Virus record (IMG/VR): IMGVR_UViG_3300046000_008568
Location: 94,501-158,500 of that record
Direction: 5' to 3' (one strand)
Source: a virus
Taxonomy: Duplodnaviria; Heunggongvirae; Uroviricota; Caudoviricetes
DNA: 64,000 nucleotides
Below are positions 198 to 17,999 of the stretch, one piece after another (the first letter of the stretch is position 1; each line of letters begins with the position of its first letter). The position numbers and the translations under genes are program-made. The notes under the pieces are model-generated. The model ran no database searches, was not told the origin of the DNA, and saw nothing but the letters and a program-made list of their open reading frames with translations.

Positions 198-1640
198 ATG
201 AAAGAAAATTACATCCCGCAAGAGAAGCGGAAAAAAATCCTGCTATTATCCGATGACATTAGAACAACATCGGGGATAGCTACAATGGCCCGAGAAATCG
301 TATTAGGAACGTGCCATCACTACAATTGGGTAAATTTAGGAGCAACTATCCAAAATCCCGATGAAGGTAAAAAATTAGATTTAAGCGGAGATTCCAACAA
401 CTTTGCTCAAATCACAGATGCAAACGTTATACTCTACCCATCTTCAGGGTATGGTACTATTGAAAGAATTAGAGATCTTTTAAAAACGGAAAAACCAGAT
501 GCAATTATGTTGTTTACAGACCCTCGTTATTGGGAGTGGTTATGGATGCATGAAAGAGAAATACGTTCTCAAGTACCTATTTTATATCTTAATATTTGGG
601 ATTCATTACCTTATCCATTATACAATAAAGGATACTATGAATCCTGTGATCTACTAATGGCTATTTCAAAACAAACTGAAAATATCAACAGATCAGTATT
701 AGGAGAAGCAGCCCATGATAAAGTAATAGGATATGTTCCTCATGGAATTAATGAAAATGTATTTTTTCCTATTAATGAAGGGGATGAAAAATGGAATGAA
801 CTTCAAGAGTTTAAAAAGAATTTATTTGGGATTAAAGAATATGAATTCGTATTAATGTTTAATTCACGAAATATTAGACGTAAATCATTCCCTGATACTC
901 TTCTAGCATGGAAATTATTTGTTGACAGCCTCCCAGAGGACAAAAAAGATAAAGTAGCATTTATTGCCCACACTCAACCAGTAGATGAAAATGGAACAGA
1001 TTTACCAGCAGTAATCGAAATGATCTGGGGTAAAACACCACCTAATGTGTTTCTTACAGGATTAAACCGATTCATTCCCGAACAAATGAATTTATTGTTT
1101 AACTGTGCTGATGCTGGAATATTAATTTCATCAAATGAAGGTTGGGGATTATCATTAACTGAAGCTATGATGTGTGGTAAGCCTATTATTGCAAACGTTA
1201 CTGGAGGTATGCAAGATCAAATGCGTTTTGAAGACGAAAATGGAGATTGGATCAAGTTTACAGAAGAATTTGGATCAAACCATTTTGGAAAATATAAAAA
1301 ATGTGGAGAATGGGCCTTTCCTGTATTCCCTAGCAATATGAGCTTAATAGGCTCCGTACCAACGCCTTATATATTTGATGATAGAGCAGATTTTAGAGAT
1401 GCTGCTAATCAAATCCAAGCAATATACGATTTAAGTTCAGAAGAACGCAAACGTTTAGGAAATTTAGCACGTGAATGGACTTTATCTGATGAAGCTATGA
1501 TGACTTCAACTAATATGGGTAAAAATGTTATTAGATATATTGATCAAACGTTTGATACTTGGATACCAAGAAAATCTCATGATTTCCTTAAAATAGAAGA
1601 ATTAATCGCAAAACAAAATAAAACTGTAATTTCGTTATGA
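198..1640 (+). CDS. glycosyltransferase, GT-B fold (GT4-like)
   Basis: 480 aa; C-terminal EGWGLSLTEAMMCGKPIIA resembles the GT4 E-x7-E nucleotide-sugar binding motif. Confidence 0.55.
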   Translation: MKENYIPQEKRKKILLLSDDIRTTSGIATMAREIVLGTCHHYNWVNLGATIQNPDEGKKLDLSGDSNNFAQITDANVILYPSSGYGTIERIRDLLKTEKPDAIMLFTDPRYWEWLWMHEREIRSQVPILYLNIWDSLPYPLYNKGYYESCDLLMAISKQTENINRSVLGEAAHDKVIGYVPHGINENVFFPINEGDEKWNELQEFKKNLFGIKEYEFVLMFNSRNIRRKSFPDTLLAWKLFVDSLPEDKKDKVAFIAHTQPVDENGTDLPAVIEMIWGKTPPNVFLTGLNRFIPEQMNLLFNCADAGILISSNEGWGLSLTEAMMCGKPIIANVTGGMQDQMRFEDENGDWIKFTEEFGSNHFGKYKKCGEWAFPVFPSNMSLIGSVPTPYIFDDRADFRDAANQIQAIYDLSSEERKRLGNLAREWTLSDEAMMTSTNMGKNVIRYIDQTFDTWIPRKSHDFLKIEELIAKQNKTVISL

Positions 1641-2935
1641 GTAAACCAATTTGTATAGTAAGCTGTCCTATCGACACATTTAGTGGATATGGAGCTAGAT
1701 CACGTGATTTTGTAAGATCACTTATTGCCTCTAAAGGTGAAGAATGGGATATTAGAATTTTATCCCAAAGGTGGGGACAAACCCCATTTGGAGCATTAAA
1801 TGAAAACATTCCTGAGGAAAAAGATTTAAAAGATAGAATTGCAGGAGCATTAACTATGAATCTCCCATCACAACCTGATGTGTGGATTCAAATCACAGTA
1901 CCAAACGAGTTCCAACCAGTAGGAAAATTTAATATTGGAGTAACAGCAGGTATTGAAACTACAATTTGTGATCCTACTTGGATTGAAGGATGTAATAGAA
2001 TGAACCTAATCTTAACATCATCAGATCACTCTAAAAAAGTATTTCAAGCTAGCCGATTTGAACAAAGAAATCAAGCCGGGCAACAAACAGGAGTTACTGA
2101 ATTAAAAACACCAGTTGAAATTCTATTTGAAGGTGCTGATTTAAGTAAATACTTTAAAGCAACTAAAAAGTTAGATTATGATGTGTGTAAAGATTTAGAT
2201 ACCATTCCGGAAAATTTCTGTTATCTATTTGTTGGACATTGGCTTCAAGGTGAGTTTGGAGAAGATAGAAAAAATGTTGGATATACAATTAAAGCATTCT
2301 TAGAAGTATTTAAAAATAAAAAAAATAAACCTGCTTTAATATTAAAAGTATCTCAAGGTGCAACTTCTATTCTAGATAGAGATAGAATTTTAAAAAGAAT
2401 AGATGATGTTAGAAAAACAGTAGCTGGTAAAAATTTACCCAATATTTACGTAATACACGGCGATTTAAGCGATAGTGAAATAAATGCCATATACAATCAT
2501 ACAAAAGTAAAGGCAATGGTTAATCTCACCAAAGGTGAAGGATTTGGACGACCTTTATTAGAATTTAGCGTTGTTGGAAAACCTATTATTGCTTCTGGTT
2601 GGAGTGGTCATATTGATTTCTTACCTTCAGAATTCGCAGGTTTAGTTGGAGGTTCATTACAACAAGTTCACCCAAGTGCGCACGTTCCTAATGTTATACT
2701 ACAAAATAGCCAATGGTTTAAACCAGATGACAATCAAGTAGGACATGCTTTTAATGATGTGTTTGACAAATATAAAGATTATCAAGAAAAAGCAAAACGT
2801 CTTGCTTTTAGAAATAAACAAAATTTCTCATTAGATAAGATGACTGAATCTTTAAGCGAAACATTAGTTAAATATGTACCGGAATTTCCTAAACATATTG
2901 AACTTAAATTACCAAAACTGACAAAAATAAAATAA
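1637..2935 (+). CDS. glycosyltransferase, GT-B fold (GT4-like)
   Basis: 432 aa; EGFGRPLLEFSVVGKPIIAS motif; ATGA overlap with upstream gene. Confidence 0.5.
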   Translation: MSKPICIVSCPIDTFSGYGARSRDFVRSLIASKGEEWDIRILSQRWGQTPFGALNENIPEEKDLKDRIAGALTMNLPSQPDVWIQITVPNEFQPVGKFNIGVTAGIETTICDPTWIEGCNRMNLILTSSDHSKKVFQASRFEQRNQAGQQTGVTELKTPVEILFEGADLSKYFKATKKLDYDVCKDLDTIPENFCYLFVGHWLQGEFGEDRKNVGYTIKAFLEVFKNKKNKPALILKVSQGATSILDRDRILKRIDDVRKTVAGKNLPNIYVIHGDLSDSEINAIYNHTKVKAMVNLTKGEGFGRPLLEFSVVGKPIIASGWSGHIDFLPSEFAGLVGGSLQQVHPSAHVPNVILQNSQWFKPDDNQVGHAFNDVFDKYKDYQEKAKRLAFRNKQNFSLDKMTESLSETLVKYVPEFPKHIELKLPKLTKIK

Positions 2936-2936
2936 A

Positions 2937-3368
2937 ATGGAAGATAATTTAGTAAAATGTGCTCATTGCGATGCAGAAATGTGTTATGAATATCATAATC
3001 CTCAATTTATACAATGGATGTGTTTTAACTGTGGTTACGGAAGTACTTCACATATGGTTAAGGATAGTGACTTTGTAAAATCATCTAAAGAAATATTACC
3101 TGAATTAATTAAAGATTTAGAATTTATTGATGATGCTGGATTTGTTTGGTATCCTAGTACAATTAATGTACCTGAAAAAGGAATACTATTCCCTAATGGA
3201 ACAAGCAAAGATACATGGGGGTGGTCAGTAGCACCATTAACATTAATTAAAGATGAGGAAAAGGCTAAATTCCCTAAAAATCAAACGCATAAAGTTGATC
3301 TAGCAGGTATAGAATACTTTCCAAAAGAATCATATGCATCGGCCGTTACAAGATTAAACGCATTGTAA
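2937..3368 (+). CDS. hypothetical protein with N-terminal CxxC...CxxC zinc-ribbon
   Basis: 143 aa; CAHCDAEMC...CFNCGYG. Confidence 0.4.
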   Translation: MEDNLVKCAHCDAEMCYEYHNPQFIQWMCFNCGYGSTSHMVKDSDFVKSSKEILPELIKDLEFIDDAGFVWYPSTINVPEKGILFPNGTSKDTWGWSVAPLTLIKDEEKAKFPKNQTHKVDLAGIEYFPKESYASAVTRLNAL

Positions 3369-3371
3369 AAT

Positions 3372-3989
3372 ATGAAAATAAGTTATGCAATAACAGTTTG
3401 TAATGAATTAGAGGAAATAAAAAGACTAGTCAATTTCCTTCTTTTAAACAAACGAGAACAAGATGAAATAGTTATACTATTTGATAGTAAAGGTACCAAA
3501 GAAGTTTGGAATTATTTATTAGAGACAGAAGAAAAACTTACCTTTTTACATAAAGATCAATTTAATGATGACTTTGGTAAATGGAAAAATCTACTTACTA
3601 AATTATGTACTGGAGATTTTATCTTTCAAATAGATGCTGATGAGATTCCTTGCACACCTATTATAGAATCTTTACCTTTTATTTTAGAATCAAATCCTGA
3701 ATTAGATGTGTTATTAGTACCTAGAGTAAATACTGTAGAAGGACTTACACAAGAACATATACAAAAATGGGGATGGAATATAAATTCAGAAGGATGGGTT
3801 AACTGGCCAGATTATCAATGGAGAATTTATAGAAATACTTCAAAAATACAATGGGTTAATAAAGTTCATGAAAGATTAGAAGGATTTAAAAATTATACGA
3901 CTTTACCAATGGAAGAAGATTATTCGTTATATCATCCAAAGACAATCGATAGACAAGAAAAACAAAATAAATATTACGATACATTATGA
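3372..3989 (+). CDS. putative glycosyltransferase (GT2-like, DxD)
   Basis: 205 aa; N-term YAITVCNE resembles GT2 start; QIDADE DxD-like motif. Confidence 0.4.
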   Translation: MKISYAITVCNELEEIKRLVNFLLLNKREQDEIVILFDSKGTKEVWNYLLETEEKLTFLHKDQFNDDFGKWKNLLTKLCTGDFIFQIDADEIPCTPIIESLPFILESNPELDVLLVPRVNTVEGLTQEHIQKWGWNINSEGWVNWPDYQWRIYRNTSKIQWVNKVHERLEGFKNYTTLPMEEDYSLYHPKTIDRQEKQNKYYDTL

Positions 3990-4603
3990 AAGCATTAATA
4001 CCTTGTGCTGGATTCGGCACTAGAATGAGAATGGCCCCACATCAAGCTAAAGAATTAATTCCTGATGAAACTGGAGCTCCTACTATTGAATGGTCTTTAA
4101 ATATATGTAAAAAATATAATATAGAACCTATTATTATTACTCGCCCTGAGAAGGAAGAATTTAATAAGTATTTAGACCAAAAACAAATCACTTATGTGTT
4201 TGATGATGGAAACTCAGTAGGAGAATCATTATTAAAAACACAACCATATTGGGATGCAACAAATATTGTAATTCTTCCCGATACTCGTTTTGATTATCCT
4301 GAAAATTTCTTTTTAGACGTTGATAAATGTATGAAAGCAGGCAATGATTATGTATTTGGGTTATTTGAAGTATCAGATCACCAAAATTGGGGTATTATAT
4401 GTAATAATGTATTCTTTGAAAAACCTAAACATAAATTTACTGAGTATGATTATGCGTATGCTTGGGGGACTATAGCATTTAGGAAGTCTACAGGAAAATC
4501 ATTACTTGAAAATTATAATTTAGTTTCTAAACCTTTCGAATTAAAAAATGCAGGTTATCTGTTTATAGACAATTTTAGAGATATTAGTAGAAAATATATA
4601 TAA
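3986..4603 (+). CDS. sugar-phosphate nucleotidyltransferase
   Basis: 205 aa; N-terminal LIPCAGFGTRMR matches the G-x-G-T-R NTP-transferase signature; ATGA overlap. Confidence 0.5.
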   Translation: MKALIPCAGFGTRMRMAPHQAKELIPDETGAPTIEWSLNICKKYNIEPIIITRPEKEEFNKYLDQKQITYVFDDGNSVGESLLKTQPYWDATNIVILPDTRFDYPENFFLDVDKCMKAGNDYVFGLFEVSDHQNWGIICNNVFFEKPKHKFTEYDYAYAWGTIAFRKSTGKSLLENYNLVSKPFELKNAGYLFIDNFRDISRKYI

Positions 4604-4605
4604 CT

Positions 4606-5250
4606 ATGGCAAACGGAATTTATAAAATAACAGAAGACTTTGAAAAAGCTTTAGCCGATTATACCGGAGCAAAATATGTAGTTACTTTAGATAATATGAG
4701 TAATGGATTATTCTTAGCATTATATTATGAAAATTACGTAAAAAAGAGTATAACTTCTCCAACAATAAAAATACCTAATAGAACTTATCCTTCTGTACCG
4801 TGTGAAATTATTCACGCTGGTTTAAAAGTAGAATTTGAACCTGTTAAAGGAAAAACTATAAAAGGAGCATATAATTTAAAAGGAAGTAATGTTTGGGATT
4901 CTGCTTTATCTTTTACAGCAGATATGTACAAATCTAAAACTCATATGTGTGTTTCATTTACAGGGCCTTACAAACATTTTAAATTAAGTAAAGGAGGAGC
5001 TATCTTAACTGATGACTATGAAGCATATCTTTGGTTCAAACGAGCTAGATATAGTGGAAGAAGAGAATGTTCATATCATGATGATAATCTAGATATGTTA
5101 GGATGGAATTTCTACATGATGCCTGAACTAGCTGCTCGAGGAATACTCCTAATGAACCAGTTCTATAACATAGATGGGACTAAAAAACATAATGCTGATT
5201 TAGAATTACCTTATCCGGATCTATCTAAGTTTGAAATTTATACTAAATGA
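4606..5250 (+). CDS. short DegT/DnrJ/EryC1/StrS-like aminotransferase homologue
   Basis: 214 aa; LADYTGAKYVVTLDNMSNGLFLAL and a later K-containing segment parallel the DegT N-term and active-site regions, but the middle domain is missing. Confidence 0.35.
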   Translation: MANGIYKITEDFEKALADYTGAKYVVTLDNMSNGLFLALYYENYVKKSITSPTIKIPNRTYPSVPCEIIHAGLKVEFEPVKGKTIKGAYNLKGSNVWDSALSFTADMYKSKTHMCVSFTGPYKHFKLSKGGAILTDDYEAYLWFKRARYSGRRECSYHDDNLDMLGWNFYMMPELAARGILLMNQFYNIDGTKKHNADLELPYPDLSKFEIYTK

Positions 5251-5822
5251 AAAAAGCTTTAATAGGATTTGGAGGGCATGCTAGAGAAGTATTAGCTCAA
5301 ATAGGAGAGAATCTTATATGTTTTGTAGATGATGATTATATAATAGAAGGTACTCAACCTCTTTCTTCTTTTGACCCAACAGAATATGAAGTAATAATAG
5401 CAGTTGGGTCTTCTAAAGATAGATATGACATTGTTCAAAAACTTCCAAAACAAACAAAATACTTTACCTTTATACATCCTACAGCTCTTGTACTGGATAA
5501 TGTTGAAATAGGAGAAGGTAGTTTTATAGGAGCTTATTCAATCCTTACTACTAACATTAAAATAGGCAAACATGCTTTACTAAATAGGAGTAGTCAGATA
5601 GGACATGACTGTATAGTAGGAGATTATTTTAGTGCAATGCCTGGAGCTATTATATCCGGTAATGTAAGAATATATGATTGTGTGTATATGGGAACAAATG
5701 CTTCAATTAAAGAAAAAATAACAATACATAGTTTCACTACAATTGGATCTAATGCTGCTGTAGTAAAACACATTGAAGAACCAGGAACATACACAGGAAC
5801 ACCAGCTAAAAAAATAAAATGA
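5247..5822 (+). CDS. PglD/NeuD/PerB-like hexapeptide-repeat sugar N-acetyltransferase
   Basis: 191 aa; N-terminal LIGFGGHAREV Rossmann-like start followed by left-handed beta-helix hexapeptide repeats (IGEGSFIGAYSIL, IGHDCIVGDY). Confidence 0.55.
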   Translation: MKKALIGFGGHAREVLAQIGENLICFVDDDYIIEGTQPLSSFDPTEYEVIIAVGSSKDRYDIVQKLPKQTKYFTFIHPTALVLDNVEIGEGSFIGAYSILTTNIKIGKHALLNRSSQIGHDCIVGDYFSAMPGAIISGNVRIYDCVYMGTNASIKEKITIHSFTTIGSNAAVVKHIEEPGTYTGTPAKKIK

Positions 5823-6496
5823 TACACATAATATATAGACATACAAGCAATGCTAGTGGTATAGGAAAAAACAGACCACATTGGTTTTCCTACGAAAAAA
5901 GTTTAAATAATATTTTATCAACAATTGATGGAATAAATTTTGTTAAATTTCATCTAGTATATGATGGTGAATATAAAGGAAATGATTCTAGAATACACCA
6001 CATAGAAAATTTTCAAGGAGGATCAGATTGGTTATCCTATGTTCATGCTTGGAATTATGCTAAAACATTACTATTAGAAGATAATGATTTAATTTACTTT
6101 GTAGAAAATGATTATGCCTTTATCCCTAATTGGCCTTACAAAGTACAAGAATTATTTAACTTATATGAAGGACTAGACTATATCACACCATATGACCACC
6201 CAGACTTCTATAATCCTAATAATTACCCGGGATTGATGACTTATATGATAGTAACGAAAACTCATCATTGGAAAACTGTCCCTAGTTCAACTGGTAGTAT
6301 TATTATATCTAAAAGAATACTAAATGAAGACTTTGATATACATACTTCTAACCCAAGTGATAGAGGTCGATTTGAATTTTTAAGTGCTACTAAAGGCAGA
6401 AATGTACTAGCACCAATACCAAGCTTAACTACACATTGTGAAGTAGAATGGTTAGCTCCTGTAATTGATTGGGAAACAATTTATAAAAATTATTAA
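5819..6496 (+). CDS. hypothetical protein (glycosylation island)
   Basis: 225 aa ORF, ATGA overlap with upstream gene. Confidence 0.35.
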   Translation: MIHIIYRHTSNASGIGKNRPHWFSYEKSLNNILSTIDGINFVKFHLVYDGEYKGNDSRIHHIENFQGGSDWLSYVHAWNYAKTLLLEDNDLIYFVENDYAFIPNWPYKVQELFNLYEGLDYITPYDHPDFYNPNNYPGLMTYMIVTKTHHWKTVPSSTGSIIISKRILNEDFDIHTSNPSDRGRFEFLSATKGRNVLAPIPSLTTHCEVEWLAPVIDWETIYKNY

Positions 6497-6497
6497 T

Positions 6498-7226
6498 ATG
6501 AAAACATTAGTAGCAATACTTCAATACAACACTTATGAGCTAACAGATAGTTTATACGAAAATTTAAAACCATATGAAAAAGATATCTATGATCTAATAG
6601 TAGTAGATAACGGTTCTAACTCTGATAAAATAAGTAAATATACCACTCACGCCTTAGAACAAAATGTATTTTATGGAGGGGGTGTAAGTGTTATATTAGA
6701 TTTATTTCTTGAATCACCTCAATATGATTCTGTTATAATATTGAACAATGATTTACACTTACATGGTTATGATTATATTAAAACATTACGAGAAGAAATG
6801 TTTAAAGGTGATTTTAAGTTAATTTCCCCTTGCGTATTAGAACCTCATACAGGTGAACAGTCTATTTGGAAAACTATGAGACCTTGGCATACTGGAACTA
6901 CTCGAGAAGTATCGTACATTGATTATCAAGCTCCTATGTTCTCTAGAGAATTAGCTGAAAAAATCCATCCAATTCCTGAACAATTAATCTATGGGTGGGG
7001 TATTGACTTCCTTTCTAGTATAATATGTGAAGAAAATAATTGGAAAATGGGAGTATGTGATAAAACACCTACAATACATCTAATCAGCCAAACTCTTAAA
7101 CTAAATTCAGAATTATCCCAAGTTAGTAATTTAGCTGAAAGAAATATGTTCGAATATTTTGAAAAATCAGGAAAATTTAGTAAATTTATGGAGATCAGAA
7201 ATAAAACTCTTAATTATGAAATCTAA
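6498..7226 (+). CDS. glycosyltransferase family 2
   Basis: LVAILQYNTYEL...VVDNGSN GT2-A N-terminal signature; the ATG at 6498 is preferred over the track start at 6465, which overlaps the upstream gene. Confidence 0.5.
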   Translation: MKTLVAILQYNTYELTDSLYENLKPYEKDIYDLIVVDNGSNSDKISKYTTHALEQNVFYGGGVSVILDLFLESPQYDSVIILNNDLHLHGYDYIKTLREEMFKGDFKLISPCVLEPHTGEQSIWKTMRPWHTGTTREVSYIDYQAPMFSRELAEKIHPIPEQLIYGWGIDFLSSIICEENNWKMGVCDKTPTIHLISQTLKLNSELSQVSNLAERNMFEYFEKSGKFSKFMEIRNKTLNYEI

Positions 7227-8085
7227 CACATTAGCAACACTACATATAATGTGGTACGAAAGTCAAATGATTAACGAAACATTAGACTCAATACAACAAG
7301 CAATATCAAACGCAACTCAACCTGTAGATCTGGTACTATGTTTAAATTCCCAAACATATATTGAAAAACCAGACGAAGGATTTATCCCTGAACAAATGTT
7401 TGATATATTTTTAGATCACCCTGTATTAGAAAATGCTAGTATAATAAAAAAAACAGATAGTGAACCTTTCTATAATATAGGGGATTGGGCTCGAGAAGCA
7501 TATAAGAGTGAAGCAAAGTACACAGTATGGTTAGAGAGTGATTGTTTAGTTCCTGAAGATTATTTTTTCTTATTAGAAAATATTAATATAGAACAACCAC
7601 ATCTTGTATCTTTATCAAATAGAAAAATGTGGGACTCTACTTGGGACGAAGTAGAACACCCTATCGTACAGCAAATACCAAGAACAGGACCTCCTGAAGA
7701 ACCTCAGAGAAATACACCTGAACCATTTGGAGTAGGGCATTACATAAATCAAGAAGACCTAAATAAATTTAATCAGCAATACGAACCTGTTCTAGTTAAA
7801 TTATCTCAACCTAAAGTGGATGGAGCACTAGCTGCTGTATCTAGTGACTTTCCTTACCCTTTTATAGTAGAAGGTGTTCATTTAGGTGGTCATGATTACT
7901 ATATGGAGTTGTTTATGAAAAAGAATAATATTTCTCAATACCATATTCCTACTAGACTAAAAGGACACAATTGTACACATCCTAAAAAAAGATTAGGAAC
8001 TAGTACTGCTAGAGGAGGTGTAGTATATAAAAAATACGAAAAGCAATGTAATGAGCTTATTCATAAACTAGTAACTACTGCCTAG
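7216..8085 (+). CDS. hypothetical protein (glycosylation island)
   Basis: The ATG at 7216 is preferred over 7159, which lies inside the upstream gene. Confidence 0.4.
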   Translation: MKSNTLATLHIMWYESQMINETLDSIQQAISNATQPVDLVLCLNSQTYIEKPDEGFIPEQMFDIFLDHPVLENASIIKKTDSEPFYNIGDWAREAYKSEAKYTVWLESDCLVPEDYFFLLENINIEQPHLVSLSNRKMWDSTWDEVEHPIVQQIPRTGPPEEPQRNTPEPFGVGHYINQEDLNKFNQQYEPVLVKLSQPKVDGALAAVSSDFPYPFIVEGVHLGGHDYYMELFMKKNNISQYHIPTRLKGHNCTHPKKRLGTSTARGGVVYKKYEKQCNELIHKLVTTA

Positions 8086-8151
8086 TATACTGCTATATAA
8101 AATTTGGATAATTAAAAAATAATCATTATATTTAAAAATAAAATAAAATAA

Positions 8152-9315
8152 ATGAAAAAAATAGAGTTAATTCAAGACACAATAGATAATCAAGATATTG
8201 ATAATTTAGTAGATTGGTTAAAAACATATCCAAGATTAACAAAAGGGGATAGAACAATTGAATTTGAAAATAAGTGGAGTAATTGGTTAGGAACTAAACA
8301 CTCTATCTTTGTTAATTCGGGATCATCTGCAAATCTTTTAATGCTATACACTCTTAGAGTATTGGGAAAAATGAAAAATGATAAAGTATGCGTACCTTCA
8401 CTATGTTGGGCAACTGACCTATCACCTGTCTTACAATTAAATATGACACCTTTACTAATCGATTGTAATCTAGATAACTTATCAGTTGATTTAAATCATT
8501 TAGAAAACATATTTATTGAACAAAATCCTTCTGTTTTACTATTAGTTTCTGTTTTAGGTCTTTCTCCGGATATGGAAAAAATTGTAGAATTATGTAACAA
8601 ATATGATGTAATTCTGCTTGAAGATAATTGTGAGTCTCAAGGAACTAAATATAATGATGTTAAATTAGGTAATTTTGGATTAATGTCTTCATTTTCAACC
8701 TACTTTGGACATACAATGTCTACAATTGAAGGTGGTATTATTTCAACAAACGATGATGAAGTATATTATACATTACTTCAACTTAGAAGTCATGGATGGG
8801 ATAGAGATTTACCTAAAACTCAACAAACAAATCTTAGAGAAGAATGGAAAATATCCGAATTCTCTTCATTATATACATTTTATATTCCTGGTTTTAATTT
8901 AAGAAGTACTGATTTGCAAGCCTATCTTGGATTACTTCAATTAAATAAAGTAGATCAAATGATTAATAATAGAGCTGAGAATTTTCAATATTACAAATCA
9001 AAATTAGAAGGCAAAGTTTGGTTTCCTAAAACTTTTAAAAATGAATTTATTGCAAATTTTGCACTTCCATTTATAGCCAAAACTGCTCAAGATAGAGAAA
9101 ATCTAATCAAAGAATTAACAGATAATAACATTACCTGCAGACCTTTAATTTCAGGATCTATGGGAACACAACCTTTTTATAAAAAATTGTATGGTGAGAA
9201 AATATTACCAAACTGCTCAATTATAGATGAAAGAGGTATCTATGTACCAAATCATGATAAATTAGCTAAGGAAGATATTGATAAAATTTGTAACATTCTT
9301 TTAAAATATAAATAA
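8152..9315 (+). CDS. DegT/DnrJ/EryC1/StrS-family PLP-dependent sugar aminotransferase
   Basis: 387 aa; KWSNWLGTKHSIFVNSGSSANLL ... FSTYFGHTMSTIEGGII resemble the aminotransferase class-V/DegT fold with its lysine region. Confidence 0.6.
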   Translation: MKKIELIQDTIDNQDIDNLVDWLKTYPRLTKGDRTIEFENKWSNWLGTKHSIFVNSGSSANLLMLYTLRVLGKMKNDKVCVPSLCWATDLSPVLQLNMTPLLIDCNLDNLSVDLNHLENIFIEQNPSVLLLVSVLGLSPDMEKIVELCNKYDVILLEDNCESQGTKYNDVKLGNFGLMSSFSTYFGHTMSTIEGGIISTNDDEVYYTLLQLRSHGWDRDLPKTQQTNLREEWKISEFSSLYTFYIPGFNLRSTDLQAYLGLLQLNKVDQMINNRAENFQYYKSKLEGKVWFPKTFKNEFIANFALPFIAKTAQDRENLIKELTDNNITCRPLISGSMGTQPFYKKLYGEKILPNCSIIDERGIYVPNHDKLAKEDIDKICNILLKYK

Positions 9316-9316
9316 T

Positions 9317-10192
9317 ATGATAACATACGCACTATCTACATTCAATACTTTAAATTATTTAAAATTAGCAGTACAATCCGCTAGAGAAAACGGATATTAT
9401 AAAGACGCTTTATTCGTTATACATGCTGAGAATTGCACTGACGGTACTAATGAATGGTTAGAAGAAAATAAAGAACGATATAATTTAGAAATTTATATTG
9501 AAAAAAACGAAATACCAAGAGGTATTGGAGGTGGAATGAATTTCTGCGCTAGTAAAGTTAAAACTAAATATATTGGGTTTTTATCTTCAGATTTTTACAT
9601 GGCTAGAAATTGGGATAAAGAATTGGTAGATATATGCGAAAATAACTCACAAGACAAAATATGGTCATTTAGTTATAGAATAGAACCAGACATATTTAAT
9701 GATCCTAATAGCAGACCAGGAGTAGTAAAAGTTCCAGTTGATGCCTTTGGTGAATTTCATCATAATTTTAATAGTGACTTTTTTACAGAATGGAGTAATG
9801 AATTTGCTGCTTCAAATGATATAATGTTTGATGTTCCTCAAGGAGTAAGTGGAGTTATTAAAAAAGAAGATTGGGATTACATAGGAGGTAATGATGATAG
9901 ATTTGCACCAATGTATTGGGAAGACGCCGATATTTTTATTAGAATGTTAAATGAAGGTTTTAAATTTAAACTTACCAGTAAGTCTGTACTTTATCACTTC
10001 GCTTCTAGAACAAGCCGATTTCCCGATGATAATTTAAACCAAAGACCAGCTCATTTAGCAGCATATGAGCAAAGAAGTTTGCAACGTTTTGTAGAAAAAT
10101 ACGGAAAGTTACCATTACATGGACCTTTAGGTCAATATACGCCTATGCCTATTGCTGATAGTTCACCAAATAGAATAAATCAAAATAATTAA
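9317..10192 (+). CDS. glycosyltransferase family 2-like
   Basis: 291 aa; N-term MITYALSTFN, DxD-like region. Confidence 0.4.
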   Translation: MITYALSTFNTLNYLKLAVQSARENGYYKDALFVIHAENCTDGTNEWLEENKERYNLEIYIEKNEIPRGIGGGMNFCASKVKTKYIGFLSSDFYMARNWDKELVDICENNSQDKIWSFSYRIEPDIFNDPNSRPGVVKVPVDAFGEFHHNFNSDFFTEWSNEFAASNDIMFDVPQGVSGVIKKEDWDYIGGNDDRFAPMYWEDADIFIRMLNEGFKFKLTSKSVLYHFASRTSRFPDDNLNQRPAHLAAYEQRSLQRFVEKYGKLPLHGPLGQYTPMPIADSSPNRINQNN

Positions 10193-10193
10193 T

Positions 10194-11159
10194 ATGAAAA
10201 CAGCGTTAATAACAGGAATAAACGGAATGGATGGAAGTCATTTAGCTGACTTTTTACTAGAAAAGGGATATACTGTCTACGGATTAGAAAGACGTAGTTC
10301 TAGTGAAAACCGAACAAATATACTACATATACAAGATAAAATTAAATTTATAAAAGGAGACTTAACAGATCAAAATTCTCTTTTAAGAGCCCTAAAAGAA
10401 GCTAACCCCGATGAAGTATATAATCTGGCTGCTCAATCATTTGTGGGAGAAAGCTGGAACACCCCAGAACAAACTAGTGATGTAACAGGATTAGGAGTGT
10501 TAAGAATGTTAGAAGCCATTCGTGAATATGGCTCGGATAAAATTAAATTTTACCAAGCATCATCCTCAGAAATGTTTGGACGTATGGTTGAAAACCCAGC
10601 AACAGAAAATACACCATTTTACCCTCGTTCGCCTTATGGTGTAGCTAAATTATATGGACATTGGATAACTAAAAATTATAGAGAATCTTATGATATGTTT
10701 ACTTGTTCTGGTATACTATTTAACCATGAATCAGAACGACGTGGTTTAGAATTTGTAACTAGAAAAATAACTAATGGTGTAGCTAAAATTCATTTAGGAT
10801 TAGCAAATCATATTTCATTGGGTAATTTAGATGCAAAACGTGATTGGGGTTATGCTCCTGATTATGTTGAAGCGATGTGGTTAATATTACAACAAGATAC
10901 ACCAGATGATTATGTTATTGCTACTAACTGCACTTATTCTATTAGAGACTTCTTAGATGAAGCATTCATAGCAATCGGAATTGCAGATTGGGAACCATAC
11001 ATTCAAATAGATCCTCAATTTATAAGACCAGCAGAAGTAGATGTGTTAAGAGGAAATGCTACTAAAGCATATAAACAATTAGATTGGTCTCCAAAAACAG
11101 ATTTTAAACAAATGGTACATATAATGGTACAAAACGATATAAAATTATTAAGTAAATAA
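10194..11159 (+). CDS. gmd: GDP-mannose 4,6-dehydratase
   Basis: ALITGINGMDGSHLADFLLEKGYTVYG, YNLAAQSFV, SSSEMFG, SPYGVAKLYGHWIT, LFNHESERRG are textbook Gmd/SDR motifs. Confidence 0.8.
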   Translation: MKTALITGINGMDGSHLADFLLEKGYTVYGLERRSSSENRTNILHIQDKIKFIKGDLTDQNSLLRALKEANPDEVYNLAAQSFVGESWNTPEQTSDVTGLGVLRMLEAIREYGSDKIKFYQASSSEMFGRMVENPATENTPFYPRSPYGVAKLYGHWITKNYRESYDMFTCSGILFNHESERRGLEFVTRKITNGVAKIHLGLANHISLGNLDAKRDWGYAPDYVEAMWLILQQDTPDDYVIATNCTYSIRDFLDEAFIAIGIADWEPYIQIDPQFIRPAEVDVLRGNATKAYKQLDWSPKTDFKQMVHIMVQNDIKLLSK

Positions 11160-11160
11160 A

Positions 11161-11730
11161 ATGGCTCATAAAGAACAAATTGATTACGTTAACAAAATAA
11201 AAAATCAATTTCCTCAATTTTTTACCAATAAAAAAGTGTTAGGTATAGGTACCTTTAATGTATGTGGTACTGAAGATGAATATTTTGAAAATTGTGACTA
11301 TCAAGGATTAGATTTAGGACCAGGACCAGGAGTTAATATTGTTTGTCCCGCTCAAGAGTATGATGCTCCTGATAATACATTTGACATAATTATTTCATGT
11401 GAATGTTTTGAACACAATCCATTTTATAAAAAAACCATACAAAATGCTGTTAGAATGTTAAAACCAAATGGTATGTTTCTATTCACTTGTGCTACTACAG
11501 GAAGACCAGTTCATGGAATTAAATCATTAGAAGAAGAAAGTAAAAAGAAATTTACTAATTGGAAAACAATGCCCAATGTAGTTAAAGAAAACTGGGATAA
11601 TGAGTACTATAAAAATTTAACTGAAGAAGATATTAGAGAATGTCTTGATTTTGATAAAGAATTTCTTTTATATAAATTTGAAGTTGAACCTAACCATTGC
11701 GATTTATTTTTCTGGGGAATTAAAAAATAA
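11161..11730 (+). CDS. class I SAM-dependent methyltransferase
   Basis: VLGIGTFNVCG glycine-rich motif I, LKPNGMFLF post-II motif. Confidence 0.5.
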   Translation: MAHKEQIDYVNKIKNQFPQFFTNKKVLGIGTFNVCGTEDEYFENCDYQGLDLGPGPGVNIVCPAQEYDAPDNTFDIIISCECFEHNPFYKKTIQNAVRMLKPNGMFLFTCATTGRPVHGIKSLEEESKKKFTNWKTMPNVVKENWDNEYYKNLTEEDIRECLDFDKEFLLYKFEVEPNHCDLFFWGIKK

Positions 11731-11733
11731 TTT

Positions 11734-12774
11734 ATGATATCACTAATAATACCTGCTACAACATCTAATTCGAATTATAATACTAATATAGTTCGTAATA
11801 TTAGAGATTTATATCCAAATGAGAATGAAGTTGAAATTATCCTAGAAATAAATGACGAAGTTAGTTTAGGTATCAATTACAACAATGCCGTTGCTCGCGC
11901 TAATGGTGAGAAAATAATATTATTACATAATGATATGGTTCTACCTAAAGGTTTTATAGAAACCATGGATAAACATATAAGTAAACGCGTAATAACGACG
12001 TATACTCGCATAGAACCTCCTATTTATATGGACACATATCCTGGTAAGATTATTAAAGATTGTGGCTCGGATTTAGGTACATTTGATGAAAGATTATTTA
12101 GTCAACTTCAATTTGAAGAAAGTCTAGTAGATGGTGGTTCACAATTATTCTTTGGGTGTATGAAAGAAGATTACATTGGAATAGATGGATATACATTTAC
12201 TAAATTTTGTGAGGATGATGATTTACATTTAAGATACAAATTAGCAGGTTTTGAACATAAAGTATCATCAGCACATGTGTATCATTTTGTAAGCAAAACA
12301 TCTCGTGTGGGTGACTACCAGAGTATTGAAATGAAATCAAATAAAAATTTTATACGTAAATGGGGGTCTAGAACTCCTAGTGTAAAATATAACATTGCTT
12401 ATATTGTTCATAATTGCCAATTACAGGCTTTAGAAACATTAGAATTATTTTGTGATAGAATATATGTTAATGAGAAATTTGAAATTGGTAGAATGTGGGA
12501 TTATGTTGAATTAGAACAAGAAAATACGTCGTTTGATTTATCTAAACGAGTATTAACTATAAAAAATAATGATCCAATATTAGAAAATGATATTGTAGTT
12601 GAGTTTGATCTTTTAAAATTTAATCCTGAATCTTTTAATATTTTACAACAGTTGCCTAACATAATTAAAGAAAGTGGTGAGATTGGTACATTTGAATTAG
12701 ATATATTTACAATTACTATTAATTCAATGACTGAATACCAAAATGATCTAATATTTATATCAAAACAACAATAA
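11734..12774 (+). CDS. glycosyltransferase family 2-like
   Basis: 346 aa; MISLIIPATT N-term, DDDL motif. Confidence 0.4.
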   Translation: MISLIIPATTSNSNYNTNIVRNIRDLYPNENEVEIILEINDEVSLGINYNNAVARANGEKIILLHNDMVLPKGFIETMDKHISKRVITTYTRIEPPIYMDTYPGKIIKDCGSDLGTFDERLFSQLQFEESLVDGGSQLFFGCMKEDYIGIDGYTFTKFCEDDDLHLRYKLAGFEHKVSSAHVYHFVSKTSRVGDYQSIEMKSNKNFIRKWGSRTPSVKYNIAYIVHNCQLQALETLELFCDRIYVNEKFEIGRMWDYVELEQENTSFDLSKRVLTIKNNDPILENDIVVEFDLLKFNPESFNILQQLPNIIKESGEIGTFELDIFTITINSMTEYQNDLIFISKQQ

Positions 12775-13201: not shown

Positions 13202-13630
13202 ATGGAAAACCAAGATCCACTAAAAAAGCTTCAAGATCAAATGAAAAATTTGATTGGATCGGATAGCACTGTTAAACGTCGTAAAAAAACTAAAGAAGAT
13301 ACTCAACGAGAATTATTTTTAACTAATATACCTTTATTAGAACATATTCTTGCTAGAGGTGTCATGTTGGATAGTGATTATGGTTTTAATACTATTAAAT
13401 ACGACGAACCTTTTTATCAGATTATTGATAGTTTAATTTATATGCATTTTGATGAAGATGCTGCTGAATTGATCATGTTCTATCTATACGAACGAATAAA
13501 CCCAGATGGAACACTTAATACTGTTACTGATATAAATGGGGATGAATTTCTTTTGGAGAACGCAGAAGATCTATGGTCATTTGTACAACAAATAACAGAA
13601 GAAAATAAAGCCGACGATGCCAGCGCCTAA
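13202..13630 (+). CDS. hypothetical protein
   Basis: 142 aa ORF. Confidence 0.4.
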   Translation: MENQDPLKKLQDQMKNLIGSDSTVKRRKKTKEDTQRELFLTNIPLLEHILARGVMLDSDYGFNTIKYDEPFYQIIDSLIYMHFDEDAAELIMFYLYERINPDGTLNTVTDINGDEFLLENAEDLWSFVQQITEENKADDASA

Positions 13631-14273
13631 ACCATTAAGTAAAGAAGATATATTACGAGCAATGCGGTTTACAAAATCAAATCGCGCTGCCGCTCGATAT
13701 TTAAGTGTATCTTATCAGCATTATAAACCTTGGGCTAAACAATATAAAATAAACGATGGTGATATAGAAGCATTAACTCTATTTGATCTTCATAAAAATC
13801 AGTGCGGTAAAGGTATTCCTAAATTTTTACCTAATAGACGAAAAGATCCTAATGTTAAAGATATAATTGAAACAGGAACAGGATGGGAATCATTTACACC
13901 TGAGAAAATTAAATCTAGATTAATAGCTGAGGCATATTTAAAAGATGAGTGTTATCAATGCGGGTTTAATGAACGTAGAGTAACAGATTATAAAACACCA
14001 TTACTACTCCATTTTAAAGATGGAAATAAATGCAATTATTTATTAGATAATTTAGATTTACAATGCTACAATTGTTACTTTCTATATGTTGCCGATCCAT
14101 TAACACCAGACCAGATCAGACATATCGAAGACAATACAGAAGTAAAAGCAACAGCATATGAATGGGATTTAACCCCAGAACAAATATCGGCCATGAAAGA
14201 ATCGGGTTTATGGGATGATAATAAAGCTGATGAAGACGAACCCGGATCAGAATTTATATCTTATATAAAGTAA
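13617..14273 (+). CDS. hypothetical protein with C-terminal Cys/His cluster
   Basis: 218 aa; CYQCG...H...CNYL...CYNC resembles a zinc-binding or HNH-like module. Confidence 0.4.
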   Translation: MPAPKPLSKEDILRAMRFTKSNRAAARYLSVSYQHYKPWAKQYKINDGDIEALTLFDLHKNQCGKGIPKFLPNRRKDPNVKDIIETGTGWESFTPEKIKSRLIAEAYLKDECYQCGFNERRVTDYKTPLLLHFKDGNKCNYLLDNLDLQCYNCYFLYVADPLTPDQIRHIEDNTEVKATAYEWDLTPEQISAMKESGLWDDNKADEDEPGSEFISYIK

Positions 14274-15081: not shown

Positions 15082-15849
15082 ATGGCAAATAATCCTGGGC
15101 TTTGGCAACATTTCCTACAAAGAGCGGATAATATAGGTATTCCTGTAGATCAAGCTCAACGAAAATATTTAATTGAGGTAAATCAATTTGAAGAATCATT
15201 ATCTAACTTCTTAGCTTTTGGTGCCGGTGGGGGTACTGCTCATCCTAATCCAATTACAGTTGAAGAGGTATTAGCTCAACAAGCAGCATGGTCTCAAGCA
15301 GTAGTTAATATAGGAGCAGCATACACAAACACCTCTGGTAGTTATCTTACTAAACAAGCTGCTGCATCCGCTGTTGCTACTACTGTAATTGCTAGTGCTT
15401 ATAATTATGATTTAGGACCTTGTTTCTTTAGACCCACATTAACCAACACACCTTATACCTTTAGAAACACATCAGAAGGAGCTCTATCTTACTTCGTAGG
15501 ACCAGACAATGACCCAGCAGGACCAGCATCAGGTTCAAACCCAAACTACCCAGATGATACTGGATTTGCTTTGAATGGTTGGAATAATGTTGTATTTGAT
15601 AATGATCCAATGAATACTGGTAATCCATATGCCGGGATAAATTGTATGGGTAATATAGCATTAACTATGGGTTATGTTACTTTTAGTGGCAGTGCTTCAT
15701 TCCCAAGTGGATCTCAACCAGTTCAAGTAGATAAAACATTCGGATATTACAAATATCCAAGTGGAGAAATCAAAATTATACTTCACTTCTCAGCAATAAC
15801 CAATTTAACTGACCAAGCTCCAGATTACAACGATGTGGATCCCGTATAA
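15082..15849 (+). CDS. hypothetical protein (Gly/Asn/Pro-rich, possibly virion-associated)
   Basis: 255 aa ORF followed by a strong terminator. Confidence 0.45.
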   Translation: MANNPGLWQHFLQRADNIGIPVDQAQRKYLIEVNQFEESLSNFLAFGAGGGTAHPNPITVEEVLAQQAAWSQAVVNIGAAYTNTSGSYLTKQAAASAVATTVIASAYNYDLGPCFFRPTLTNTPYTFRNTSEGALSYFVGPDNDPAGPASGSNPNYPDDTGFALNGWNNVVFDNDPMNTGNPYAGINCMGNIALTMGYVTFSGSASFPSGSQPVQVDKTFGYYKYPSGEIKIILHFSAITNLTDQAPDYNDVDPV

Positions 15850-15871: not shown

Positions 15872-15902
15872 TTGGGGAGCTATTTGGCTCCCCAATTTAT
15901 TA
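15872..15902 (+). terminator. rho-independent terminator
   Basis: TTGGGGAGC-TATTT-GCTCCCCAA hairpin followed by a T-rich tail. Confidence 0.6.
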
Positions 15903-16599: not shown

Positions 16600-16683
16600 G
16601 GAAGGCATCCGGCAGGATCAGGAGCTGCTCTTGAAAAGCAGTAGCGGGTTAAACCGTTGTGAGTTCGAGTCTCACGCCTTCTT
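16600..16683 (+). tRNA. tRNA-Ser (anticodon TGA), class II
   Basis: Acceptor GGAAGGC/GCCTTCT; anticodon stem CTGCT/AGCAG with loop CTTGAAA; long variable arm; T-arm GTGAG-TTCGAGT-CTCAC. Confidence 0.6.
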
Positions 16684-16689
16684 CAATAT

Positions 16690-16761
16690 TGGTCTATGGT
16701 ATAACGGTTATTACACTTGACTTTGACTCAAGCAATCGTGGTTCGATTCCACGTAGACCAA
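16690..16761 (+). tRNA. tRNA-Gln (TTG)
   Basis: Acceptor TGGTCTA/TAGACCA; anticodon stem CTTGA/TCAAG with loop CTTTGAC; T-arm CGTGG-TTCGATT-CCACG. Confidence 0.6.
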
Positions 16762-16771
16762 CAAATAATTT

Positions 16772-16847
16772 CTGGATGTAGAGGAGCCCGGTTTATCTCG
16801 CTGGCCTTGGACGCTAGAGCACGCAGGTTCGAATCCTGCCATCCAGA
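16772..16847 (+). tRNA. tRNA-Pro (TGG)
   Basis: Acceptor CTGGATG/CATCCAG; anticodon stem CTGGC/GCTAG with loop CTTGGAC; T-arm GCAGG-TTCGAAT-CCTGC. Confidence 0.55.
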
Positions 16848-17048
16848 CTATAGACTGTTACTAATTCATAGATCACTGCCTAATAAGCACCGACGCATAG
16901 AATTAGATTTTGCCCTTTAGGCTTTAAAGTGAAGCACGATACTTTTAATATCGGGAAGTAGGAGCATTACCTACAAGGGGTACAAATTAGACTGTTAAGG
17001 TAGGACGTCAGTCAAAGAGAGGTGAGCCATACCTAAACCTCTTACCAG

Positions 17049-17119
17049 CCCCACATGGCGTAATGGTAGCGTGATTGTTTTACATGCAATAGGCGGTGGT
17101 TCGATTCCACCTGAGGGGA
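17049..17119 (+). tRNA. tRNA-Val (TAC)
   Basis: T-arm GGTGG-TTCGATT-CCACC; anticodon stem ATTGT/GCAAT with loop TTTACAT; acceptor has one mismatch. Confidence 0.5.
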
Positions 17120-17167
17120 CAATCAAGTGGTTATCACTAAACAATGGATTAAAAAGGAAGTGAATAA

Positions 17168-17374: not shown

Positions 17375-17382
17375 CAATAAAT

Positions 17383-17994: not shown

Positions 17995-17999
17995 CAACT

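Follow-up and report, generated by a model that had tools for sequence, protein, structure and literature searches.

Which activated sugars does a phage make when it carries its own nucleotide-sugar genes, and to which acceptor are they attached? The question is raised by an island of 15 tightly packed genes (12.6 kb), all on the + strand, at positions 198-12774 of a 64,000-nt stretch of IMG/VR virus record IMGVR_UViG_3300046000_008568. This stretch was analysed as a whole (the window in the following) and represents 64 kb of a genome that probably measures near 160 kb. A first-pass annotation had read the island as a canonical route from GDP-mannose to GDP-N-acetylperosamine, to be placed on fibre proteins with Thr/Ser/Pro arrays. 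We propose a cytoplasmic glycan-assembly operon instead, which consists of a fixed core and a swappable sugar cassette and probably acts on virion proteins; we assign this reading a probability of roughly 55%. The enzyme families, the split between His and Lys at the catalytic position, the architecture of the operon, a swap of a GDP-L-fucose synthase (Fcl) for a ColD-type dehydratase, purifying selection, and the lack of membrane or export components are tool-based; the exact sugars and the acceptor we infer.

Phage origin and layout of the island

The sole megablast match of the window was Flavobacterium phage vB_FspM_immuto (immuto in the following), a virulent myovirus of 160 kb (Immutovirus). 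Because synteny with immuto extends across the window, baseplate and fibre genes included (tblastn), and because a baseplate wedge homologue lies at 50715-52526, the window is, as judged from gene content and order, phage DNA from a relative of immuto. The GC content of the island (0.28-0.34) is like that of the rest of the window. Its genes lie, all co-directional, where the first-pass annotation had placed them, and the ATGA overlaps by which they were said to be joined occur at four junctions (1637, 3986, 5247 and 5819), the remaining gaps mostly measuring 1-3 nt. By its predicted products, the island is a phage-encoded nucleotide-sugar and glycosyltransferase operon.

A fixed core and a variable cassette

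For comparison we used 80 loci from IMG/VR together with immuto (81 in total; related loci carry L-numbers below). Four genes at the left end of the island form the core of this lineage, which is abundant in aquatic viromes. The block, which recurs in all 80 IMG/VR loci and in immuto with identities of 41-93%, comprises two glycosyltransferases (GTs) of family GT4, a small protein and a GT2 enzyme:

198-1640, + strand: core GT4 glycosyltransferase 1, 480 aa; PF00534 40.2 bits (cut-off 26.4)
1637-2935, + strand: core GT4-like glycosyltransferase 2 (probable), 432 aa; PF00534 22.5 bits, under the cut-off
2937-3368, + strand: small conserved protein, 143 aa; N-terminal CxxC...CxxC motif, Zn-ribbon-like
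3372-3989, + strand: core GT2 glycosyltransferase, 205 aa; PF00535 34.7 bits (cut-off 23.3)

Homologues of the first gene were found in 80 of the 81 loci (44-93% identity), with a ratio of nonsynonymous to synonymous substitution rates (dN/dS) of 0.049 against L005. The second gene, which overlaps the first by ATGA, is present in 81/81 loci, and its product matches TIGR04047 (E 2.5e-7). For both proteins the best PDB match was glycosyltransferase B736L (3oy2; E 2.7e-8 for the first and 2e-3 for the second), presumably a chlorovirus (virus-encoded) enzyme. The idea that the adjacent GT4 genes encode a GtfA/GtfB-like pair, as in serine-rich-repeat glycosylation, was rejected, as the PDB search gave no GtfA/GtfB and B736L as the best match. 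The small protein, for which no family match was obtained in Pfam or NCBIfam, has homologues in 66 of the 81 loci (median identity 34%), always between the second GT4 and the core GT2. The latter is the most conserved gene of the island, with at least 595 relatives in IMG/VR (61-79% identity).

Everything downstream of the core varies among the 81 loci. Five close relatives (L003, L004, L005, L021 and L038) share the right half of the island, i.e. the homologue of the gene at 7216, a variable slot, a GT2, the GDP-mannose 4,6-dehydratase (Gmd) and the final GT. In the window phage, the corresponding features are:

7216-8085, + strand: conserved protein, 289 aa from ATG 7216; always flanks the Fcl/ColD slot
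8086-8151: intergenic gap of 66 nt, AT-rich; the only sizeable gap of the island and, in the junction table, the left edge of the swapped gene
8152-9315, + strand: predicted ColD-type GDP-4-keto-6-deoxy-D-mannose 3-dehydratase, dependent on pyridoxamine phosphate, 387 aa; PF01041 224 bits, full-length DegT fold
9317-10192, + strand: GT2 glycosyltransferase, 291 aa, between ColD and Gmd; PF00535 48.6 bits (cut-off 23.3), PF10111 27.4 bits
10194-11159, + strand: Gmd, 321 aa; TIGR01472 430.7 bits (equivalog cut-off 415), PF16363 439.9 bits
11734-12774, + strand: GT2-like glycosyltransferase (probable), 346 aa, right border of the island; PF00535 19 bits, under the cut-off

In L004, L005, L021 and L038 the slot is occupied by a short-chain dehydrogenase/reductase (SDR) of 308 aa, for which the GDP-L-fucose synthase model gave 388.9 bits, in the window phage and L003 by ColD. 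Since colitose is 3-deoxy-L-fucose, the exchange of Fcl for ColD would mean a minimal sugar change within an otherwise conserved module; it also removes the only reductase. The neighbours of the slot are well conserved in the five relatives (79-91% identity for 7216-8085 and 83-95% for the GT2 at 9317-10192). The flanks of the island are closest to L005 and its centre (6465-10192) to L003, and this mosaic of identities points to cassette exchange by recombination. As L021 and L038 also encode an E1/RfbH-like dehydratase (349 bits), along with an RmlD-like SDR, 3,6-dideoxy chemistry appears to be recurrent in the lineage.

Assignment of the proteins encoded at 8152-9315 and 10194-11159

The product of 8152-9315 had been taken for a full DegT aminotransferase. 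The full-length DegT fold stands, but the reaction has to be revised. Among PDB entries, ColD (2gms) scored 208 bits (E 1.6e-60), a perosamine synthetase 122 and E1 115 bits, and identity with E. coli ColD is 31% over 351 aligned residues. The query segment FSTYFGHTMSTIEGG puts a His on the column of ColD His188 ('FGH'); that the aligned column is indeed His188 follows from its occupancy, H in wild-type ColD, and N and K in the mutant entries 3b8x and 2r0t, respectively. Among the proteins compared, the catalytic column is distributed as follows (MAG, metagenome-assembled genome):

His, dehydratase class: window 8152-9315, L003, L013, MAG L089, Pelagibacter MAG L090, cyanophage ACG-2014f gp222
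His, dehydratase class: L021 (E1/RfbH-like)
Lys, aminotransferase class: immuto gp94 (WecE/PseC-like)

The change from Lys to His is the key difference between 3-dehydratases and aminotransferases, and E1 and SpnQ have a four-cysteine [2Fe-2S] motif that ColD lacks (PMC8987622). In the 8152-9315 protein, the stretch between residues 160 and 329 is free of Cys and the His is not followed by an insert; at this place, the E1-like protein of L021 has a Cys-rich Fe-S insert ('CYC...CGC'). With His for Lys, no Fe-S motif, a closer relationship to ColD than to aminotransferases or E1, and a gene encoded together with Gmd, it is predicted to be a ColD-type 3-dehydratase, not an aminotransferase. The Schiff-base Lys of a perosamine synthase (Per/RfbE) is absent. 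Because of the His and the similarity to ColD, this protein is not a candidate for the conversion of GDP-4-keto-6-deoxymannose to GDP-perosamine.

Gmd lies one gene downstream of ColD, and the two are also paired in L003, L013, L089 and cyanophage ACG-2014f. The closest cellular homologue of the window ColD (63% identity) is that of MAG L089, where the order Fcl-like SDR, ColD, Gmd equals the classical colitose arrangement; a scan of bacterial genomes for ColD relatives, using peptide patterns that were too specific, gave two loci. The assignment of Gmd made in the first pass was confirmed. Its score exceeds the equivalog cut-off, residues 2-318 align with profile positions 1-341 of 342 (TIGR01472), and the extended-SDR cofactor and catalytic motifs (GxxGxxG, S/T-x-E, YxxxK) are present, with GINGMDG at residue 8, SSSE at 123 and YGVAK at 148, followed by NHESERRG at 177. 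Identity with cyanophage Gmd proteins is 52-56%.

For a complete GDP-L-colitose pathway, a reductase (ColC) would be expected as well. A search with five SDR queries (phmmer --max) in all six frames of the 64 kb for a ColC/Fcl-like reductase returned Gmd only. One could argue that the Fcl-to-ColD swap was a recent recombination accident that left a dead-end 4-keto sugar and a non-functional Gmd module, given that a ColC-type reductase was not detected in the 64 kb and that cellular and cyanophage ColD genes adjoin an Fcl-like SDR. We consider such a broken pathway very unlikely. ColD and the GT2 beside it are intact, as are the other genes of the cassette, and between the window and L003 dN/dS is 0.046-0.063 at dS 0.35-0.64 for ColD (0.056 at dS 0.35), the neighbouring GT2 and a shortened DegT protein introduced below; the pair of Gmd and its L005 counterpart, out of register because of an indel, was left out of this analysis. 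Such strong purifying selection indicates that the ColD arrangement has persisted and is maintained, not decaying.

A shortened DegT protein and its probable acetyltransferase partner

Left of the Gmd module, three consecutive genes encode what may be a second sugar module:

3986-4603, + strand: probable sugar-1-phosphate nucleotidylyltransferase, 205 aa; NTP_transf_3 24.3 bits (cut-off 27)
4606-5250, + strand: mini-DegT, probable sugar 4-aminotransferase, 214-aa protein of the pyridoxal phosphate-dependent fold with catalytic Lys; PF01041 over residues 7-84 only
5247-5822, + strand: NeuD/PglB/VioB-family N-acetyltransferase with left-handed beta-helix, 191 aa; TIGR03570 165.2 bits (cut-off 160.8), PglD_N and Hexapep

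The nucleotidyltransferase named in the first-pass annotation is probable only, as its family match, like those to the N-terminal domains of GlmU, RmlA and GalU (E 2e-6 to 2e-4), stays under the threshold; homologues were found in L003 and L005 only, and in L004 the slot holds an SDR of 332 aa.

The mini-DegT aligns colinearly with DegT enzymes, and its 'YKHF..KGG' coincides with the catalytic Lys of a genuine aminotransferase (immuto gp94). It retains the Asp (WDSA) and the Ser-Phe...Lys...Gly-Gly signature of DegT sugar aminotransferases but lacks one internal beta-alpha unit and the entire C-terminal domain, and with these the two-domain architecture of ~360-390 aa; the PF01041 profile positions aligned are 24-97, plus 162-246 in distant members. 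The family is large, comprising 7,510 clusters at 90% identity (the top 120 all 84-95% identical and ~214 aa long), and an exhaustive search yielded 378 representatives at 50% identity (E<1e-10), mostly of 196-260 aa. Across 104 diverse members (32-61% identity), K123, S117, G131 and E13 are conserved in 100% and D98 in 99%. Against immuto, dN/dS is 0.044 at a dS of about 1.4, i.e. near saturation. A recent phage-to-phage transfer of the mini-DegT/acetyltransferase pair, which has 82% nucleotide identity to immuto, was rejected on these values: near-saturated dS together with low dN/dS speaks for constraint, not recency. Fusions to GNAT acetyltransferases occur in some members, and one member is joined to a GT4 and an FkbM methyltransferase; for several members elsewhere, an HNH or EndoVII homing endonuclease is part of the protein or was called together with it.

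As to the function of the mini-DegT, an AlphaFold2 (AF2) model of moderate confidence (pLDDT 64, pTM 0.70) matched sugar aminotransferases only, GDP-perosamine synthase ranking first with many others nearly equal, and the best NCBIfam matches, although weak, were PseC and LegC. A sequence search against solved structures in the PDB gave no match. The acetyltransferase gene always adjoins the mini-DegT gene or sits one gene away, and we regard the mini-DegT as the likely functional aminotransferase partner of the acetyltransferase. The latter had been described as PglD/PerB-like. Membership in the wider NeuD/PglB/VioB family holds, its TIGR03570 score being above the cut-off, whereas PerB (56 bits) is not its closest characterised relative, ranking in the PDB behind VioB (100 bits), the 4m9c protein (87) and PglD (79).

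The mini-DegT occurs in several contexts. Near-identical proteins (84-95%) are encoded in immuto and L068, where no Gmd homologue was found in the sequence examined, and in immuto and L004 an own 4,6-dehydratase-like SDR adjoins the mini-DegT module. A different phage lineage with PhoH and dUTPase, represented by L082-L085 (ENA/JGI/Logan contigs), holds a module of mini-DegT and PglD-like protein. In L082 (genes at 3388-12096) this module is accompanied by NeuB, a CTP_transf_3 CMP-sugar synthetase, a GT29 sialyltransferase-like protein and a Maf/MptE-like protein, which suggests phage-encoded synthesis and transfer of nonulosonic acids. A nonulosonic-acid context is one that expects a pair of 4-aminotransferase and N-acetyltransferase, as in the L082-L085 module.

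What remains, then, of GDP-N-acetylperosamine? The components from which it was deduced, Gmd, a DegT fold, a PglD/PerB-superfamily acetyltransferase and the fibre arrays, are all present. The canonical route nevertheless fails at the aminotransferase step: 8152-9315, which would have to act as perosamine synthase, carries a His where the catalytic Lys is required and is much more similar to ColD than to Per, and ColD showed no transaminase activity under the conditions tested (summarised in PMC8987622). The acetyltransferase, too, is nearer to VioB and PglD than to PerB. N-acetylperosamine could be reached only in a weaker version, in which the Lys-bearing mini-DegT, with GDP-perosamine synthase as the top structural match of its model, would aminate the Gmd product. 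Against this version, mini-DegTs that are 84-95% identical occur in phages that lack Gmd (immuto, L068) and family members occur in NeuB contexts, which argues for another substrate. Together with the fibre arrays as target (see below), this model appears improbable to us.

A variant that we find doubtful as well, although somewhat less so, is that the product of Gmd and ColD is aminated by the mini-DegT and acetylated to give GDP-4-acetamido-3,4,6-trideoxy-D-mannose (N-acetyl-3-deoxyperosamine), to be put on virion proteins by a cytoplasmic O-glycosylation core of the flagellin type. Amination of the ColD product would explain why ColD is kept under selection without ColC, and PDB entry 3dr7 is a perosamine synthase with GDP-3-deoxyperosamine in its active site. 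If this were true, N-acetyl-3-deoxyperosamine would be a sugar not known from nature, and the mini-DegT would represent a new minimal class of sugar aminotransferases of ~60% of the usual size, widespread in aquatic phages.

The acceptor

To which molecule the sugars might be transferred is best approached from the core. A profile of the core GT2 (32 sequences) matched the GmaR chain 22ao (E 3.3e-9) at positions 7-202 of 207, i.e. over the full length of the catalytic domain, whereas for other GT2 structures the match was confined to the first ~110 positions (the generic N-terminal half). In GmaR, the GT domain serves to attach GlcNAc to flagellin (PMC9638930). The similarities of the core GT2 to GmaR and of the core GT4 enzymes to B736L are hints of a protein O-glycosylation of a structural polymer. 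In addition, no transmembrane segments were found in any island protein (top 19-residue hydropathy 1.5), and none of the island proteins matched a priming phosphoglycosyltransferase, flippase/transporter or polymerase (Wzx/Wzy) family in Pfam or NCBIfam. This absence implies assembly in the cytoplasm on a pre-existing acceptor. Most likely, the acceptors are structural proteins of the phage, which would receive their O-glycans in the cytoplasm, prior to assembly; glycosylated virions are known from mycobacteriophages (cited in PMC12619734).

Alternatively, the unusual sugars and GTs could be fed into the pathway of the host for lipopolysaccharide (LPS) or capsule linked to undecaprenyl phosphate, thereby remodelling the host surface in order to block superinfection or to stop progeny from adsorbing to infected cells and debris. 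This is the usual reading of comparable 'LPS genes' clusters in cyanophages (PMC9602691). ColD, Gmd, Fcl, the E1-like and the PglD-like proteins are classic O-antigen enzymes, the cassette is as hypervariable as O-antigen loci, and the missing ColC-type step and 4,6-dehydratases suggest a reliance on glycan metabolism of the host. On the other hand, a Wzx/Wzy- or ABC-dependent O-antigen or capsule locus has membrane components, and the island encodes neither a priming phosphoglycosyltransferase, flippase, polymerase or ligase nor any other membrane protein. Moreover, the relatives are virulent myoviruses, and the core GT2, present throughout the lineage, resembles a protein O-glycosyltransferase and not a lipid-linked one. 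Remodelling of the host surface is in our estimation less likely than virion glycosylation, but it is a serious rival.

A third destination would be DNA, with the GTs glycosylating modified bases of the phage genome as a means to evade restriction. Among phages, DNA-glycosylating enzymes of the GT-A and GT-B types are widespread and usually cluster with ThyS, 5mYOX or C5-MT genes (Pyle et al., bioRxiv 10.1101/2023.12.21.572611). Immuto encodes DpdA, QueC/D/E/F and a long ThyA-like gene, the latter about 22 kb away from its island; in the window, no ThyS/hydroxymethylase, 5mYOX or C5-methyltransferase was detected in the island or among the larger open reading frames (ORFs). Known DNA-glycosylation systems have one or two GTs; about seven GTs plus dideoxy and acetamido pathways are far in excess of this number, and the best matches of the GTs act on proteins and glycans. 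Hypermodification of DNA is hence, in our judgement, a highly improbable function of the island. In immuto (L086) itself, a full 7-deazaguanine DNA-modification set (DpdA, FolE, QueC/D/E/F) is found at 18607-37015, and the ThyA-like protein encoded at 26884-28155 is unusually long (423 aa). The counterpart of this region lies outside the window.

If virion proteins are the acceptors, the Thr/Ser/Pro arrays at 54064-55668 and 61541-end are an obvious place to look. They are real and consist of 18/36-nt tandem repeats. As substrates that would account for the island in general they are not supported, as immuto has the same core GTs and no such arrays, and among 74 relatives of the N-terminal domain of the fibre there is none with an array within 6 kb. 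In the closest relative (L092, on the contig of L005; 5995-10620), a single protein of 1,542 aa, free of arrays, combines the N-terminus of window 54064-55668 with 55709-59782. The window fibre carries an insertion of ~1 kb at this point, which encodes a (T/S)PS(V/I)(T/S)(V/I) array plus a C-terminal module with Cys residues; a new start codon comes next. The array and Cys-rich module of 54064-55668 would accordingly be an insertion private to the window phage. The arrays could still be glycosylated in this phage, but the island predates them. In the 61541-end protein, similar arrays alternate with small Cys-rich modules, resembling binding domains separated by linkers.

Proposed pathway

According to our proposal of an operon acting on virion proteins, the core (two GT4s, the small protein and the GmaR-like GT2) would attach the first sugars to a conserved acceptor, while the variable cassette would supply strain-specific activated sugars and GTs for extension. 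In module (a), Gmd would produce GDP-4-keto-6-deoxymannose, from which ColD would remove the 3-OH group to give GDP-4-keto-3,6-dideoxymannose; through the exchange of Fcl for ColD, a module for fucose would become one for a 3-deoxy (colitose-type) sugar. For the last, ColC-type reduction, the phage would depend on an Fcl/ColC-like reductase of the host, or the keto sugar would be taken by module (b), in which the nucleotidyltransferase, mini-DegT and VioB/PglD-type acetyltransferase would form a 4-acetamido-4,6-dideoxyhexose. The glycan would be completed by the methyltransferase together with three to five further GT-A enzymes.

Several points weigh against this proposal. The colitose branch is incomplete, with no ColC in the window; the part of the genome outside the 64 kb might encode a reductase, a membrane component or an enzyme of DNA modification. 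At 214 aa, the mini-DegT lacks the C-terminal domain that helps substrate binding in known enzymes. The nucleotidyltransferase and four of the GTs are graded as sub-threshold or probable, and 7216-8085 is without family match. The acceptor was proposed from homology and gene content: the similarity to GmaR is remote (40 bits), acceptor specificity of GT2 enzymes is not readable from homology, and the sole obvious Ser/Thr-rich candidate substrates are not conserved together with the island.

Remaining genes of the island

The cassette is completed by three genes:

5819-6496, + strand: probable GT-A fold glycosyltransferase, 225 aa; family profile matches SunS (E 1e-3) and SpsA (E 0.2)
6498-7226, + strand: DUF707-like protein, probably GT-A-like, 242 aa from ATG 6498; PF05212 27 bits (cut-off 24.1)
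11161-11730, + strand: methyltransferase dependent on S-adenosylmethionine, 189 aa; Methyltransf_11 36 bits (cut-off 21.2)

The protein encoded at 5819-6496 has no direct family match itself, and in its family PF00535 was matched by 3 of 11 members. Both ORFs called with a TTG start more likely begin at ATG 6498 and ATG 7216; for the former this agrees with the L003 homologue, which is 98% identical. The product of 7216-8085 gave no match in Pfam (including all family members), in NCBIfam, in PDB sequence and PDB profile searches, or in hhalign comparison with the GT2 family of the island, and a single-sequence AF2 model (pLDDT 36) contained nothing usable. The methyltransferase, correctly recognised in the first pass, has a homologue in none of the 81 related loci; in L003, Gmd directly abuts the next GT without a methyltransferase in between, and we take the gene to be an insertion private to the window phage. 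The GT at the right border is homologous to immuto gp102 ('glycosyltransferase', 40% identity) and present in 24 loci. In total, three GTs pass the Pfam gathering scores and four more are probable, to be compared with the at least six announced in the first-pass annotation.

Other features of the window and its relatives

A scan of the region for sigma-70 promoters gave fewer matches than expected by chance. Two recurrent promoter-like motifs were found, neither of them in front of the island, where the window begins within an ORF and shows its end only. The first, GTAWYTTTATA, often followed by ..GTTAAAAACA, has 12 sites (16539-42908), all on the + strand, versus 1.0 expected; they precede a tRNA block and, at 24-43 kb, many small genes, and none is located in the island or the structural region. 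The second, ATATTTATA, likewise has 12 sites, all on the + strand, versus 6.9 expected on both strands. They include 12751, 14274, 15048, 44473, 46996, 49919, 52534 and 59799 and mostly precede, by ~20 nt, the start codons of structural genes as well as those of the three genes that adjoin the island on its downstream side. The motif is a possible late-promoter element.

Just downstream of the island, an HNH endonuclease is encoded at 13617-14273 (49% identity to immuto gp107), followed at 15082-15849 by a protein of 255 aa that resembles metal-independent carbonic anhydrase at a score below the threshold (NF047901 113.8 bits, cut-off 350). The strongest terminator-like hairpin of the region (15872-15895) lies after this gene. 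Within 3.9 kb (16600-20469) there are 18 tRNA genes; a separate tRNA-Ser(cga) is located at 35129-35198. The tRNA cluster is reflected in a rise of GC to 0.37-0.40 at 16-22 kb, contains a further HNH endonuclease gene (18637-19143), and has its counterpart in immuto in four annotated tRNAs at the corresponding place. It is adjoined by a probable tRNA/RNA-repair set (22346-27358), which includes an HAD domain of 'Swiss Army Knife' RNA repair proteins (23500-24051), two calcineurin-like phosphoesterases (24147-24863 and 24922-25572) and an RNA ligase with a PHA02142 OB domain (26213-27358).

Comparison with known systems

The nearest known counterpart is the island of immuto (gp90-gp102), for which the GenBank record holds generic annotations only. 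It has the same position and order (GT4, GT4, small protein, GT2, cassette, GT); the core proteins are ~60%, the mini-DegT 92% and the acetyltransferase 82% identical to those of the window. Its cassette comprises a Lys-type WecE/PseC-like aminotransferase, a methyltransferase, a mannosyltransferase and an SDR of 283 aa, but neither Gmd nor ColD.

Clusters termed 'LPS / cell-wall' in cyanomyoviruses (P-SSM2, S-CAM7, S-SCSM1 and ACG-2014f) contain, like the window, Gmd, several GTs and methyltransferases, and Fcl in addition. They belong to another phage family with other hosts, and a shared core GT trio was not seen. In Synechococcus phage ACG-2014f (L091, NC_047713.1 155911-159028), gp220-222 are annotated twice as 'nucleotide-sugar epimerase' and then as 'aminotransferase'. 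They correspond to a Gmd (52% identity), an Fcl/ColC-like SDR (46% to the Fcl-like protein of L005) and a His-type ColD-like protein, so that a cultured cyanophage seems to possess a full trio of the colitose type that has gone unrecognised. This phage thus has a reductase beside ColD, unlike the window phage, and such ColD-like genes are annotated as 'aminotransferase' or 'hypothetical'.

In bacteria, the GDP-L-colitose pathway (E. coli O55, Yersinia pseudotuberculosis, Vibrio cholerae O139) consists of Gmd/ColB, ColD and ColC. The window shares with it Gmd and a predicted 3-dehydratase of the pyridoxamine phosphate-dependent type, with His for Lys and no Fe-S cluster. It differs in that Gly, not Ser, precedes the His, that ColC is not encoded in the window, and that the genes form a phage operon without Wzx/Wzy. 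The arrangement of mini-DegT and acetyltransferase recalls the PglE/PglD, LegC/LegH and VioA/VioB pairs, in which a DegT-fold Lys enzyme is likewise adjacent to a PglD-type acetyltransferase with left-handed beta-helix; aminotransferases of the PglE/LegC/VioA type measure about 370-390 aa, the window mini-DegT 214 aa. As for the acceptor, cytoplasmic protein O-glycosylation is represented by GmaR acting on Listeria flagellin, by Maf/FlmG and the nonulosonic acids of flagellins, and by virions of mycobacteriophages and chloroviruses, all with soluble GTs and structural-protein acceptors modified before export or assembly. The core GT2 of the window is homologous to GmaR in the GT domain and lacks its tetratricopeptide repeat or anti-repressor part.

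Clusters of Gmd, Fcl and GT genes in phages are already documented, and to call such a kit rare in phages, as the first-pass annotation did, was an overstatement, considering the at least 595 IMG/VR relatives of the core, Gmd in 84 of 50,697 GenBank phage records, and the ACG-2014f trio. Worth recording are the design of fixed core and variable cassette, the one-gene change from fucose to a 3-deoxy sugar without a reductase, and the large, constrained mini-DegT family.

Glycan genes of phages are usually filed as generic 'LPS' auxiliary genes. Calling ColD-type dehydratases aminotransferases is an annotation error that is likely to recur, GenBank records of cyanophages included. With its fixed GT core and interchangeable sugar cassettes, the lineage represents a natural experiment, and its cultured member immuto makes the question of the acceptor testable.

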